Source: Squalus acanthias (Eukaryota). Taken from it: a DNA stretch of 64,000 bases. Positions within the stretch are counted from its first letter, which is position 1. Each line of letters begins with the position of its first letter. The notes under the pieces were generated by a model. That model made no database searches. It saw only the letters and a list, made by a program, of their open reading frames with translations, and was not told the DNA's origin. The stretch spans positions 2,852,001 through 2,916,000 of the forward strand of contig CM059430.1 in NCBI GenBank assembly GCA_030390025.1, written 5' to 3'. Shown here piece after piece: positions 22,101-28,100 of the stretch. A program made the position numbers and the translations under genes.

Positions 22101-25100
22101 CGAGACAAAATAAGCCATCATTGTCAGCAGAGAATCTATAGCAGCAGAACAAATGTACTTTTGTGAGGTTTTTTGTAAGATCGGATTTTGCCTCGTACTT
22201 TTCTTCTGTAATCCCTTATTACCTGTATCAATCCTCCAGCGGTTGAGGATTTTGAAAGGGGCAGCCACAAAGAGTTAAGCTATAAACCTCAGTGACTTTA
22301 AATACTTGTGCTGTTCAGTGACACAGCTGGCAAGAGGTTCACTTTTCATAGAGCGAGACAGACGGACTCTTTTTTCCCTCCGAGGTGAGACATTACAAAC
22401 TTGCAATCCAACTGTGACTTCTGCAGCAATAGACAACTTTGACTGTCGGCCTGTACTGGGACCTGAACCCATGACACCAATAGTATGAGGCTGTCTTCAC
22501 TGCTGCTTTACTCTCCCATTCACAGATACAGTAAAAGCTGTCCTTCCGCTTGCCACTAGATTTGACTTTTTTGTTGACCACAGTATTTCCCGTCCATTTT
22601 GATTTGTTTACAAAGCACATCAGCTCACCTAATTTGCAGTTAATAAGGTAGCGCAGAATTAAGAAGTGACATTTATGATGTTTGTATTGTCTGTCAAGTT
22701 AATAAAATGCCTAATTCTGTTTTTCCCCAGAGAAACGCCAGGATAATGGACGAGTTTATTTTGTTAACCACAATACACGGACAACCCAGTGGGAGGACCC
22801 AAGAACTCAAGGGTAAGAGCAGCTAATCTCTTAAGGTATTTAAATAACCTTAATAACTTGGGTGTCTCATTTTGGGGAAATCTAATTAAATGATAACTTA
22901 TTTATAAAGGTTTTATTTTCATTGCAACAAAGTGTCTCGTCCACCTGGCATTCTCTGATTAAAATACATATGAAACAGGTACCGTTCATTAAGATTGTCA
23001 GCATTGTATCTTATTGTACAGTCATGTGTAAATACACAGGCAGCGCACTAAGCAGTTTGATCTCAGCCACATTTAGAACAATTATTTTTCCCATGCCATT
23101 TCCGACATAATTAAATCATACCTTGAATTTACTTTTTTCTTTCCTCTTTCACTTTTCTCCAGCTTTTCCTTGTCCTCCATTTTTTGGGGAGAATGAGATA
23201 TTTTATTTCAATTTTGCTCAAGTCTCCCTGGGTCATACTTGATTTTTGCAGTTTAGCATTGGAGCAAATTATGGAAAAATGTAACTGAGCAGATATAACC
23301 ATTCATAGCATTAGAGCACACTTATGAGTGCATTTTGATTCTAACTTTGTTCAGTTCATAATCATAACCATTCTTTAGCTTTACTGATTCTGTAGCCGTA
23401 GCCAGTCTTATATAGGGAGGTGCTATGATGAAGCCAAGTACTTTCTGGCATGGAGCAAGGGAAAATCAAATAGGTAGTCTTCACCAGGCTGCTCCTGAGC
23501 ACCTCCTGGCACATGGCCACAAGCAGCACTGGAGGGTGTGTGTCCCATCTCTGACAGCCACAGGAAGTGCGTGCACTTGCAGAGACAAATAGGCAAAAAG
23601 AGAGTAATAGATCTACAAAAAAGAAAAGCATGCAAATTCTGATCTTAAACCTATTCTGAGTATGCAAGGAAACTGGACTGATTAGAACCTTTGTTAACTC
23701 GGTGATGTTCACATAGATTCTCGTAAGAAGCAGCTATGGACCCTTAAGTAAAGTGCAGTAAAATGGAGTTCCAGGTTTCATACCTAAATGTTTGGATTTT
23801 GTAGCAGAGTACGTTTACTTTTGAAAGGAATTGGGTACATTGTAAACAAACATTCTTGCGGCTATAAATATTATTTATGAAATTAACTCATGCCTACTTA
23901 CTAAGTCATGGAAAATGTATACATTTTGTAGTTTTTGCATTTTTACTGTTAATCTGGTTTACAGTCTTGTTCCAACATTTTCACTCCTCATCTCCATAAC
24001 AACTGAAGGCCATAATTTATTGTTCTCATCATGTATTTAATTTATCTTGTGTCACATCCACTAATTATTTGCACTAAACACTGTGGGAACAAAACCTAGT
24101 TAGTGTGATCTGCATGTGGAATGGAGAATTTAGTTGGTCAGTGCATGTCCGAATCTTGTATCACTGCTCCAGGGAGCCTAGTACAGTACAGATCTGATAG
24201 AACAGATGACCCCTCTTTTCTGATTAAAAAGAAAAACTGTAAATGCTGTATATAGATGTGAAACACAAAGACAAAAACATTTTGAAATATACAACAGCAA
24301 TGACAGCCCCTGAAAGAGGACAAGTTAACCAACCTTTTCTTCGAGAATCCCATCTGAAATATTAACCTGTATTACTCATTCAGGTGTTGACCAGTCTGCT
24401 CTGTTGTATATTATGTTTTATGATATTAGTGCACTTAAATGAAATAAATTGTGCCTGCACTTCAATCTATACAGTATGTCATCTGGCCCTTTCTTCAGTG
24501 AACTCCTAGTTACATTTACATTGAATGTAAAGAAATAACTTACATTTACAAACTTTCCATTGCTTTAACATCCTCAGGACATCCCAAATTGCTTCACAAG
24601 CAATGTCCTAGTTTTGAAGTGTAGTTCTTGTTATAGGCAGTAATTTCCAAATTTAAGTTTTTTTCTCATGAAAGTTCCCTTACTGTAAAATCTCAAAGCA
24701 TTAAACATTATTAAAAGTTTATTTTATTTCCTATTTAGTTGATGAGATCTATTTAACAATAATATGCATTTAAGAACTTTGTTTTTGTTCGAAAGATTTC
24801 TTTATTTCATCCCCACACTAATAAATTTTCTGTGTGGGATCATTAGCTTTTCACCTAAAACTGAATCGGGGAGGACTAGTATGATGTATGAGGGCTCCAG
24901 TGCACTATTCCATAGCACGGTGATGTGCAGGTTCGCATCCACAATCCCAACTTGTTGATTTGCCATTTTTAGCCATGCCATCTATATTTGAGGACCAGAT
25001 GGTTCTCCACAGGGAGTGAGTCAAAATTGTAAGGAAAATAATCCCAGGTCACTCGCAGCTCCTAGCAGCCTCTGCGACAGTGGCATAAGTTTTCTGTTGT

Positions 25101-28100
25101 CGATAGTGGTCATGATGCGGAGATGCCGGTGTTGGACTGGGGTGGACAAAATTGAGAGGTCGCACAACACCAGGTTATAGTCCAACAGTTTTATTTGAAA
25201 TCACAAGCTTTCGGAGCTATCGATTGCTCCTTCCTCAGGTGAAGTAAACTTCACCTGAGGAAGGAGCAATCGATAGCTCCGAAAGCTTGTGATTTCAAAT
25301 AAAACTGTTGGACTATAACCTGGTGTTGTGCGACCTCTCAATAAGTTTTCTGCCCATTGTCTCAGCCAGGATGATGTGTGGTAGCAATAAGGTGATCACA
25401 ACTGGCTTCAGAACCTTGGGTTAGGGAGAGCATCGGTCAGGATTTCCATCCGTGTTGCTATCCAGTAGCCTCTGCTGGAAGTGCCTTGTATAGCAGTCAG
25501 GCTTGTTTATGATGTCTTTCTTGGTGGTTGAGTAACTTGTCAGTATTCACTGCCAAATCTTCGATGTGAATAATAGTCAATGGTACTTAAGGTTGGATAA
25601 GTACCTGAAGGAAAAAAATTTGCAGGGCTATGGGGAAAGGGCAGGGGAGTGGGACTAGCTGAAGTGCTCTTGCAGAGAGCCGGCACGGGCTCCTTCTGTG
25701 CTGTAACCATTCTATGATTCTATACCCCAGCAAGGAGTCAATACTTACATTAGAGGAGAGGTGAGGAGAAAATTGGTGAGAAACCAAACCAGAACTGAAT
25801 TGGAACATTAGTTTGTCAATTCATCATCATAATAAATAGCTGTTATGTGTTGCTTAAAGTTCACAATTACTTTATAGTTAATATCAGTCACTTTGAAAAA
25901 GATTACTCTTTCTATCTGTGACTAAAAAAGTGTTTACAAATCCAATCATCAGCACCATTTAGTCATTACTCTTTCTATCTGTGACTAAAAAAGTGTTTAC
26001 AAATCCAATCATCAGCACCATTTAGTCATTGATGTCAATCATGTGGTATTAGTTCATGGCACTCTGTTTTATTAACCAAAGCACTACTAACCCCAAATAC
26101 AATATTAATGTATTTTGTATAAACTTTTAATAAAGTTTCCACTGAGGGGATAGGTTTAACCAGTGCCTTTACCAATTTTTTCCAAGGTTAACAAGGCATT
26201 TCCTCTTACAAGATTCTTGGTGCCTTGGTAATTGAATCACTGGGAATTTTGTGTGTGTGCGTGTGCAAATATCAATTTGTCACCTCAATAACTTGAAAAT
26301 ATTTTATTGCATATTACACTTCAAAACTGACGATTTAATCAATTATTATTTTTGAAAGTGACTATAGTACTGACATTGACACGCAAGTCCTTCAGTTGTA
26401 AGTGTTCGATCATTTTTTAAAAGATCCAACATTTTGTTAAATCATAGGTCCAAAGTCACCTGTTCCTCCCAACATGCTACATTTACTGTCATGTCTTGAA
26501 TTACTCATGTATTGTATCCCAAAATATTATTTTCTGAAAGAAATCGATCTAGTTTGCAGTTGAATGAACCAGCACTATCTGCTTCCACTATCTCCCTAGG
26601 GAGCCTGTTCCATAGAGTGACCAGTTGCTCACCGAAATCGTGCTTCCTCAGATTAGTTTTCAGTTTACCCCCCCCTTCAAGTGTTCCCCAGGTAGGTAGA
26701 AGAAACGAATCAGCCCAAGTTCTTGCTCTGAAGTCTGTTTATTCAGTGATGCGTGCTGGAAAGTGCGCCTGTGTTAATGCTAGGTGAGGACAGGATTAAG
26801 CCCCTGCCGTCTTGGTCCCATGGTAAAATGGCCTACTAACATTTACTATCTAGATTTACATGAGTGGTCACTGGGGTGAGGTGCTGGAGTTCTGCCAGCT
26901 TCTGTGGATCCATGTCCCAGCATGAGTCATTGCCTTTAACAGGATAGGGGGGAGGGGGGTGAAATTGGAGGGGAAATAAACTGGCATTTGTTTGGCAGCA
27001 GTCGAATATTTAACTCCTGTTTAGAAGGCCAGGGTTTGAATGCTAGGTCCGACAAGTGAATTTGGCTGCGTTCAGTAAGTATGTTTTGCAGGTATTGCCT
27101 CTGGCTATTAGTTGGGAGGTTCTTTGACTGAGAGAGGAGGAAAAAAGAGCAGGGAAACTAAAGCTACAGTCCTATGGGTGGATACAAAATGGCACGTTAC
27201 TGTGGAGAAGTCCATGGCTCAGATGATCTCCCTTCCTGTTCCTCATACTGAAGGGGAACAAGACGGAGGCAAGAACATAGTAAAAAAAAAGGGGATTTAA
27301 AAAAAATAGAAACAAACTGGCAACAAAACAAAATTACTGTCAGAAATGGAACTCCTTGGTTTTAACTATTCTACTGACAATATCTGAGCAAAATTGAACC
27401 AATCAGAGTAAACGGTTGTATAAAAGGGATCACTGTCCTGGTTCACTAACTGTGCAGCATTTGTGTGCGTCAGTTTCAGACATGAATTTGACAGCCAGCC
27501 AAATAGTGGCCAATTAGCTGTAATTACCAACAAAAAAAACATGGTTATCTCAATTTGCCTGTCAGAGATCAGCAGAAACAGAAACAGCAGTTATGACAGC
27601 ATAGCAGAAGTATTTTATAGCCGTTGCCACTCATTTACAAATACCCAATCAACATTTTTGCCTAACTAAATCAAGAATGACATTTGAACCTCCCAGGATT
27701 TTTTTTTCTTGCATGTGCATCTTAAAAGGCAAATGTGAAAAAAAATCAATCCTGTTCTGCCAAGCTATAACTTGTTTATAGTAGGATCACTAATGTCAAC
27801 ACAGTGAACCTGCTGCTGCCCGTGTAATAATTAAACTTCCATTATTATACGATAATTGTTTCAAAAAAGGTTGAAAACTGAGGGAGCTGCTTCAAGATCA
27901 ATGCCTATTTGGACTGGAGGATCTTGAGGCAATGCAGCAGCATGTTCTGTCATGGATTGCAGCACAAAGACGGACAATCACAACTCTGTCACTATACATA
28001 ACCCTGGATTTATTTAGTGATCACAGGACTGGAATCACTGTTTTTGTGCTACCCTACAAAAGTTGAAAGCAATTTTATAAATAGTCCTAAGATTTTTTTT

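Follow-up and report, generated by a model that had tools for sequence, protein, structure and literature searches.

A palindromic insertion in a WWP2 intron of Squalus acanthias: head-to-head stubs of a Penelope-like retrotransposon and what their junctions suggest about its integration

The stretch of DNA analysed here, hereafter the window, comprises 64,000 nt of the Squalus acanthias contig CM059430.1 and contains, within an intron of WWP2, a short hairpin that is a real, recent and lineage-specific insertion. It is composed of two stubs, placed head to head, of a common Penelope-like element (PLE). The host intron lies between two plus-strand WW exons, one ending at 22812 and the next starting at 32685, whose splice is in frame. 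WWP2 is the top PDB chain among those matched by a single WW stretch (73.6 bits, with 58.5 for the best single WWP1 domain), and by summed score the multi-WW chains of Itch and WWP1 outrank it. Further downstream, a later intron of the host gene holds a mir-140 precursor, and miR-140 is known to reside within WWP2. An earlier interpretation of this DNA, made from its letters alone and referred to here as the sequence-only reading, had placed the hairpin in a WWP2 intron, and these three observations confirm that location.

The insertion consists of two arms of 95 nt each, 100% complementary and separated by 2 nt, plus an unpaired tail, all of it between the copies of a 12-nt direct repeat (Table 1). 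There are 244 nt of insert between the repeat copies, the final 2 nt of the right arm also belonging to the repeat, and the palindrome folds with a z-score of -26. The architecture described beforehand, an insertion of about 245 bp with a 12-bp target-site duplication (TSD), a tail of about 54 nt and perfect 95-bp inverted arms, was thus recovered. Contigs of two other organisms run from 25084 straight into 25341, which shows that the direct repeat arose as a genuine TSD and that only this lineage has the insertion. A contig from a second individual of the same organism ends at 25096, like that of the probable source sample, and covers the left flank side only. The tail, the longest among 80 palindromes examined, has a mismatch to the parent element at base 25097 and is partly coding, as it includes the first 16 coding bases of the parent's open reading frame (ORF); the description of the whole as non-coding does not hold for this part. 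Parent positions are numbered throughout with the A of the ORF's ATG as +1.

Table 1. Features of the insertion and of its host gene, in window coordinates.
Feature	Position	Strand	Basis or remarks
Left TSD copy, 12 bp	25085..25096	+	repeat search; single copy at the empty site of two other organisms
Unpaired tail, 54 nt	25097..25150	-	covers roughly -36 to +16 of the parent (ATG at 25113-25111), plus base 25097
Left arm	25151..25245	-	parent pseudo-long terminal repeat (pseudo-LTR), -131 (initiator A) through -37; minus strand is sense, runs on into the tail
Minimal type I hammerhead	25201..25242	-	position 17 at 25205; mirror of the plus-strand motif
2-nt spacer, AA on the plus strand	25246..25247	.	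parent bases -133/-132 or untemplated additions
Right arm, tail-less	25248..25342	+	parent -131 to -37; last 2 nt common to the TSD
Minimal type I hammerhead	25251..25292	+	position 17 at U25288
Parts of the plus-strand hammerhead	helix I 25251-54/25289-92; core 25255-61; bulged A 25262; helix II 25263-67/25276-80; GAAA 25281-84	+	
Right TSD copy, 12 bp	25341..25352	+	repeat search; empty site
Host intron of WWP2, between WW3 and WW4 exons	22813..32684	+	exon ends and protein match
mir-140 precursor	41081-41159	+	103.5 bits; later intron of the host gene

The origin of the arms is clear from their copies elsewhere in the genome (3.7 Gb searched). Arm and tail together were identical at 150/150 bases in the top 39 other scored copies, and one 31-mer from the arm has 18,587 exact matches. 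Among 29 other loci that were fetched, 28/29 run on into the ORF and 0/29 have a palindrome at the same centre. A natural copy (L035) shows the complete arrangement, namely, a pseudo-LTR, an intact ORF of 893 aa (L035:3301-5979) and a second pseudo-LTR, with a unit period of 3146. This ORF matches RVT_1 at an E value of 1.5e-8 and GIY-YIG at 22.6 bits, right at the Pfam cut-off, and the Atlas neighbours of the protein have the same domain set. The translation also contains DKG and CCHH, both read by eye, and CX4CxxC in the linker before the endonuclease; the definitions of the DKG, CCHH and CX2-5CxxC motifs are those of PMC8557442, which assigns CX2-5CxxC linker motifs to Neptune/Nematis types. 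The copies show the traits of endonuclease-bearing (EN+) PLEs: a single ORF with reverse transcriptase (RT) and C-terminal GIY-YIG, pseudo-LTRs in partial tandems, inverted 5'-truncated copies, a tail at one end and a TSD. Judged by its sequence, then, the parent is a young EN+ PLE of Neptune/Nematis type, and the PLE origin proposed beforehand, together with the expectation of a parent encoding RT and GIY-YIG, proved right. Near-intact copies of the same element, 99.2-99.9% identical, also form tandem and inverted arrays several kilobases long (L031, L032; one with an in-frame internal deletion), and nine same-strand matches of one junction pattern within 20 kb (G000:C4:179565156-179584809) suggest a tandemly amplified segment holding a truncated copy.

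Each arm contains a minimal type I hammerhead ribozyme motif with a palindromic AGCU helix III, as had been proposed: a pattern search gave two matches, one per strand, against 0 in 100 shuffles. An Rfam search of the window locus gave no hammerhead match, so that the suggested hammerhead search succeeded by pattern and not by covariance model library; its mir-1597 match, at 49.6 bits against a cut-off of 93, was dismissed as a sub-threshold, generic hairpin match. The motif has the features of PLE minimal hammerheads, that is, a CUGANGA/GAAA/NUH core, a bulge at 9-10.1, G10.1-C11.1 and a palindromic helix III. The extra A after CUGANGA had been called non-canonical; an unpaired base at the 5' end of stem II, like the palindromic helix III, is instead the norm for PLE hammerheads (PMC4209133). 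The predicted cut after U25288 on the plus strand agrees with position 17 of the model and would, by symmetry, fall at 25205 on the minus strand.

The motif was followed through 32 haplotypes, hand-picked from 85 regex-selected variants and mutually related, so that any covariation among them amounts to a few events. The core and the extra A are kept in all of them, being invariant except at U4/C, N7 and position 17 (U/C). The covariation in helices I and II that the sequence-only reading had named as a test was seen within that limit: 99.3% of 288 helix I/II cells are paired, versus 27-49% in slid controls, and each helix has one pair that changed from C-G to U-A (4 sequences each), with G-U intermediates in addition. 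Because the core and extra A are kept and the helices covary, the motif is, on this comparison of copies, under selection in the parent lineage. Two subfamilies differ within the motif: a sister subfamily has C for U at position 17 (L301, L304, L310, L319, L320), and another has C at core position 4 (for example L067, L091, L096).

Inside the hairpin the ribozyme is in a different situation. Single-arm folds are no more stable than their shuffles (z from -1.6 to -0.05), and for helix II within a transcript of the whole palindrome the predicted probability of pairing is about 1e-20; by the head-to-head geometry, the antisense arm is transcribed first from either direction. The prediction thus agrees with the earlier idea that the 95-bp duplex would sequester the ribozyme, and the hammerhead of the stub is best described as a predicted passenger of the parent's 5' untranslated region (UTR), folded away by the antisense arm. 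The further idea that this protects the host pre-mRNA finds no such agreement, since the antisense-first geometry needs no selection and a lone minimal hammerhead shows no cleavage as a monomer, with low cleavage even as a dimer (PMC4209133). In a stronger form of this idea, selection would maintain palindromic copies in introns, the benefit being either a ribozyme disarmed by its antisense arm or a supply of regulatory double-stranded RNA from that arm. We consider this very improbable: the predicted block to hammerhead folding is in its favour, as is the reported depletion of tandem retrozymes from Xenopus introns (bioRxiv 10.64898/2026.07.22.740005), but the insertion is absent in two other species, the monomer did not cleave (PMC4209133), and the geometry follows from the insertion mechanism.

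Whether such hairpins are copied as units or rebuilt each time was addressed in two sets of loci. The first, centre-selected set consists of the first 50 of 480 genomic loci in which a palindrome centre lies within 12 nt of the hammerhead's 5' edge; the second, unbiased set comprises all 71 clusters behind the first 100 matches of the arm 31-mer. Overall, the loci examined are these 71 clusters and about 150 selected loci, a sample of the genome. The unbiased set contains 35 head-to-head pairs, 37 non-inverted arms (three being far ends of composite insertions) and three arms abutting internal inversions, with arm lengths that form a continuum from <100 nt to >3 kb. A whole hammerhead is present in both arms of 22/35 pairs, and 8/35 are stubs like that of the window locus. 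In the centre-selected set there are 21 different centres in 50 loci, and the TSD measures 11-15 nt in 46/50, which supplies the copy number and TSD lengths that had been asked about.

According to the sequence-only reading, the hairpin is a non-coding ribozyme-palindrome unit, transcribed and mobilised whole by the PLE enzyme. The existence of about 480 palindromes of similar size, the recurrence of their centres and the existence of PLE-derived non-autonomous retrozymes (bioRxiv 10.64898/2026.07.22.740005) would suit such a unit. Three groups of observations tell against it. First, loci with one and the same centre differ in haplotype and in which arm has the tail: the commonest centre (15/50 loci) has six helix II haplotypes and tails on both sides, and the centre of the window locus is found at seven loci with five helix II haplotypes and seven different tail junctions, the tail being on the AA-side arm in two and on the opposite arm in five. 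Second, tail ends and short ends differ between loci, insertion sizes are continuous, and the long tail of the window locus is found in none of the other six loci with its centre, so that centre and tail together have no second copy. Third, the insertion has no promoter and just 16 nt of ORF. The fixed ends and internal structure shared by descent that mark elements like miniature inverted-repeat transposable elements (MITEs) or short interspersed nuclear elements (SINEs) are not seen in these palindromes. Mobilisation as a unit is therefore highly improbable, and the idea is already largely refuted.

Because the same centre comes with varied haplotypes, tail sides and junctions, and because sizes are continuous, the palindrome is rebuilt at each insertion. 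Stub palindromes are thus likely built anew by the PLE at each landing, with no spread as a ribozyme element in their own right, and the window locus is very probably an ordinary de novo PLE insertion. It is itself ordinary and young, one among hundreds of like insertions, with no sign of a host role. As to targets, 18/76 TSDs (L037-L054, L156-L170, L201-L264) resemble one AT-rich motif that is like the element's own short priming site, and by eye their flanks all belong to one LINE-like repeat, a sign that this repeat may be a hotspot for insertion.

How the two arms arise is indicated by their ends. The tail is on exactly one arm in 35/35 unbiased head-to-head pairs and in 50/50 centre-selected insertions, and 30/37 non-inverted arms are tail-less and end near -37. 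A single cDNA could be primed at the tail site and fold back, or RT could self-prime on an antisense template, as proposed in PMC3846280, the copy stopping near -37 and later deletions at the centre making the arms uneven. We regard this explanation as unlikely. The ends near -37 of non-inverted arms point to a priming site of their own. In 18/35 pairs it is the arm without a tail that extends further 5', by more than 5 nt (the tailed arm does so in 11, and the two are within 5 nt in 6); in these 18, each arm has sequence that the other lacks and neither can have been simply copied from its partner. In 18/50 centre-selected loci the two arms are both complete to -131 and do not overlap, seven with no spacer and four with a single base, a result that fold-back priming does not easily give. 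Finally, at three loci the arms belong to two known haplotypes, distinguishable by two linked sites: L130/L241, which is 1/34 of the unbiased pairs compared (L155 left out), and L207 and L226, which are 2/50.

Other data weigh against a simple origin from two RNAs. The arms mostly agree, with 42 differences in 6,728 bp versus 179 shared non-reference bases; helix II is identical between arms in 42/50 loci, compared with 0.17 for random pairs; and arm lengths correlate (rho 0.61, n=35, permutation p 5e-5; 0.82 for the 20 outside the zone of the transcription start site, TSS). Shared haplotypes, rare variants and lengths fit a fold-back copy equally well as two copies of one RNA, the commonest centre (15/50) can be drawn as a small hairpin, and the three discordant loci could be gene conversion. 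Taking both sides together, two RNA-templated cDNAs seem probable, and we infer that two primers on one RNA, or one source, are the rule and two sources the exception. Junction microhomology averages 1.7 nt at both ends, versus 0.49 and 0.31 in the control (69 and 70 junctions); this control was one-sided and a fair one would be about twice as high, which makes the excess modest.

The 5' ends of the arms accumulate at one point. Within -136..-117 fall 33/110 arm ends, versus 3-9 in each of five neighbouring 20-nt bins, and genome-wide the counts are 1,427 for arms whose first base is -131 and is preceded by a base other than T, 114 for starts at -133 after C/G and 11,257 for arms that read through. 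All 30/30 fetched -131 starts were true junctions, 20 inverted and 10 to flank. TATAWAWR and YYANWYY are the consensus motifs for the TATA box and the initiator: a TATAWAWR match begins 30-32 nt upstream of -131, in several subfamilies and in 21 of the 25 commonest upstream variants, a figure that gives spacing and not frequency, as the filter required a TATA and the loci overlap. The A of a YYANWYY match falls on -131. A full-length copy, L155, begins at about -135. From these motifs and ends we infer that -131 is the transcription start and that the stubs are run-off copies of the 5' UTR, and run-off at the TSS does appear likely. A TATA box and an initiator-like motif have been noted in a rotifer pseudo-LTR (PMC3846280), and the promoter of Drosophila Penelope is TATA-less (PMC2377424).

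Four points count against a start at -131. The data are assembled contigs, so that the assignment comes from DNA and not from RNA: no RNA record was listed for the window locus, and putative RNA contigs aligned to the parent's 5' region resolve neither a start nor strand or editing; the base before -131 is G in 51, C in 39 and A in 10 of the first 100, a bias that microhomology would favour as well as a cap-derived G of the kind known for L1 (PMC4859970); an extra G is present at only 1/8 flank junctions with a TSD; and the two spacer bases of the window locus agree with parent -133/-132, which lie 2 nt past the supposed start. The competing explanation accepts de novo PLE stubs and attributes the pile-up to RT release just past the hammerhead structure, or to another RNA cut. 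The peak does lie 3 nt 5' of helix I and ends do spread from -119 to -135, but its single-base sharpness (about 11-fold over -133), the TATA and initiator matches at textbook spacing, the similar start of L155 and the lack of a comparable peak at the hammerhead cut site leave this explanation doubtful.

The cut site itself, at -90, was considered as a second run-off point and rejected. No clear pile-up of cDNA ends was seen there among the junctions examined. In 59 palindromes an arm from the TSS zone is joined to an arm starting near -90, mostly at microhomologies, and 3,603 matches have C/G before -90, the first 100 comprising 95 C, largely a subfamily variant, and 5 G. The lack of a pile-up is in line with uncleaved RNA being the main template, as found for an anole PLE in vitro (PMC11167929). 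That enzyme, a predicted dimer, cuts and extends both target strands, its two RT start sites bracket the tail, and it needs 172 nt of ORF RNA and no hammerhead cleavage (PMC11167929).

We therefore favour, with a probability of about 0.65, the view that the stub is the smallest common head-to-head form of a young endonuclease-bearing PLE insertion, in which both target strands prime cDNAs that run off the RNA and join. The enzyme would nick the two strands about 12 nt apart, and both would prime cDNA on the parent RNA: the short arm would come from a target 3' end that primes near -37, and the tailed arm from the other 3' end, priming near +1 to +9. At the window locus, with its unusually long tail, the second start would lie at +17; judged by eye, about 6 of 8 bases of the target end can pair with the RNA there. 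Both cDNAs would run off the RNA 5' end at -131, yielding products of about 95 and 135-150 nt, whose ends would be joined blunt, by microhomology of 1-4 nt or after the addition of 1-4 bases, and the whole insertion would be made in one event. Since the TATA box and almost the entire ORF start are missing from the stub, no further mobility is predicted for it. The general statement, that PLEs integrate by fixed-register twin priming, with start sites some 40 nt from each other that usually belong to a single RNA or source but in some cases to two, and with cDNA ends joined head to head, has in our estimate an even chance of being right.

The origin of inverted pseudo-LTRs and of the one-sided tail in PLEs is stated as open in PMC8557442, and in the literature searched, which mostly left subscription papers outside its coverage, no prior statement of TSS run-off or twin priming in PLEs was found. 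The junction statistics, namely, one tail always, loop-less centres, two-haplotype loci and a single-base peak behind a TATA, favour the two-primer model. The value thus lies in the palindrome population and not in the window locus: if the model is true, the stub palindromes, hundreds in number, preserve a fossil record from which the transcription start of the element can be read to the base, and they settle the origin of inverted pseudo-LTRs and the one-sided tail. In any case, hairpins of this kind should not be annotated as MITEs, miRNAs or a new ribozyme element.

Three other inverted structures were noted in the window. At 14065-14288, also in the host gene, there is an older head-to-head stub of a sister PLE subfamily with a 13-bp TSD (14065-14077, 14276-14288) and its tail on the left arm; its hammerhead is intact on neither arm, one being truncated inside the core and the other having G12 changed. 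Long inverted repeats at 6826-7752 (191 and 99 nt, 91-93%, with a 343-nt spacer) have no match to the PLE reference, and a loop-less palindrome of 82 nt at 8898-8979 (41-nt arms, 90%) is unrelated to it.

When compared with known systems, the structure is of an already known kind, and the detail that is new here lies in the junction statistics of the palindrome population. EN+ PLE insertions with an inverted 5'-truncated copy share its head-to-head pseudo-LTR ends, one-end tail and short TSD, a pseudo-LTR and tail that reach the first codons, and a TATA plus initiator-like motif in the pseudo-LTR (PMC8557442, PMC3846280, PMC2377424). The window insertion differs from them in consisting of the two ends only (244 nt), with no ORF body, and in its tail of 54 nt versus 30-40 (about 40 being usual in this family). 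The parts of the literature examined gave no description of PLE arm ends piling up at one base.

With the minimal type I hammerheads of metazoan PLEs the motif has in common a short helix I, a bulged base between 9 and 10.1, G10.1-C11.1, a palindromic 15.2-16.2, variable families with covariation and opposite-strand pairs (PMC4209133). Such pairs were previously noted about 100-700 bp apart (PMC4209133), whereas those of the window locus are only about 8 nt apart, inside a perfect duplex, and have U at position 17, where the sister subfamily has C. The text of PMC4209133, as far as examined, gives no shark example. The anole Poseidon element studied in vitro is similar in its two RT start sites bracketing the tail, the cutting and extension of both strands, AT-rich targets and uncleaved RNA as main template; it is a member of the Penelope/Poseidon clade whose RT starts 111-118 nt inside the ORF and whose hammerhead is at the ATG (PMC11167929). 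In contrast, the shark PLE would use sites near -37 and +1 to +9, has its hammerhead 90-130 nt upstream and shows target-RNA junction homology of 1-3 nt.

Non-LTR retrozymes are likewise small and PLE-derived and carry a type I hammerhead, but they are same-direction tandem repeats with a hammerhead per unit (bioRxiv 10.64898/2026.07.22.740005), whereas in the window insertion the two units are inverted and the pair is not copied as a whole. The locus holds a single inverted pair, where a retrozyme has at least two same-direction tandem hammerhead units. In L1 twin priming, reportedly described by Ostertag and Kazazian in 2001, two target ends prime two cDNAs that are joined inverted inside one TSD. 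Two primers, an inverted join and one TSD are also what we propose here; L1 inversions, however, combine adjacent non-overlapping segments with poly(A) (bioRxiv 10.1101/2024.12.14.628481), whereas both cDNAs of the PLE would copy the same stretch from fixed starts about 40 nt apart. The arms overlap fully and have no poly(A), unlike an L1-type inversion, and a two-primer mechanism may nevertheless be at work.

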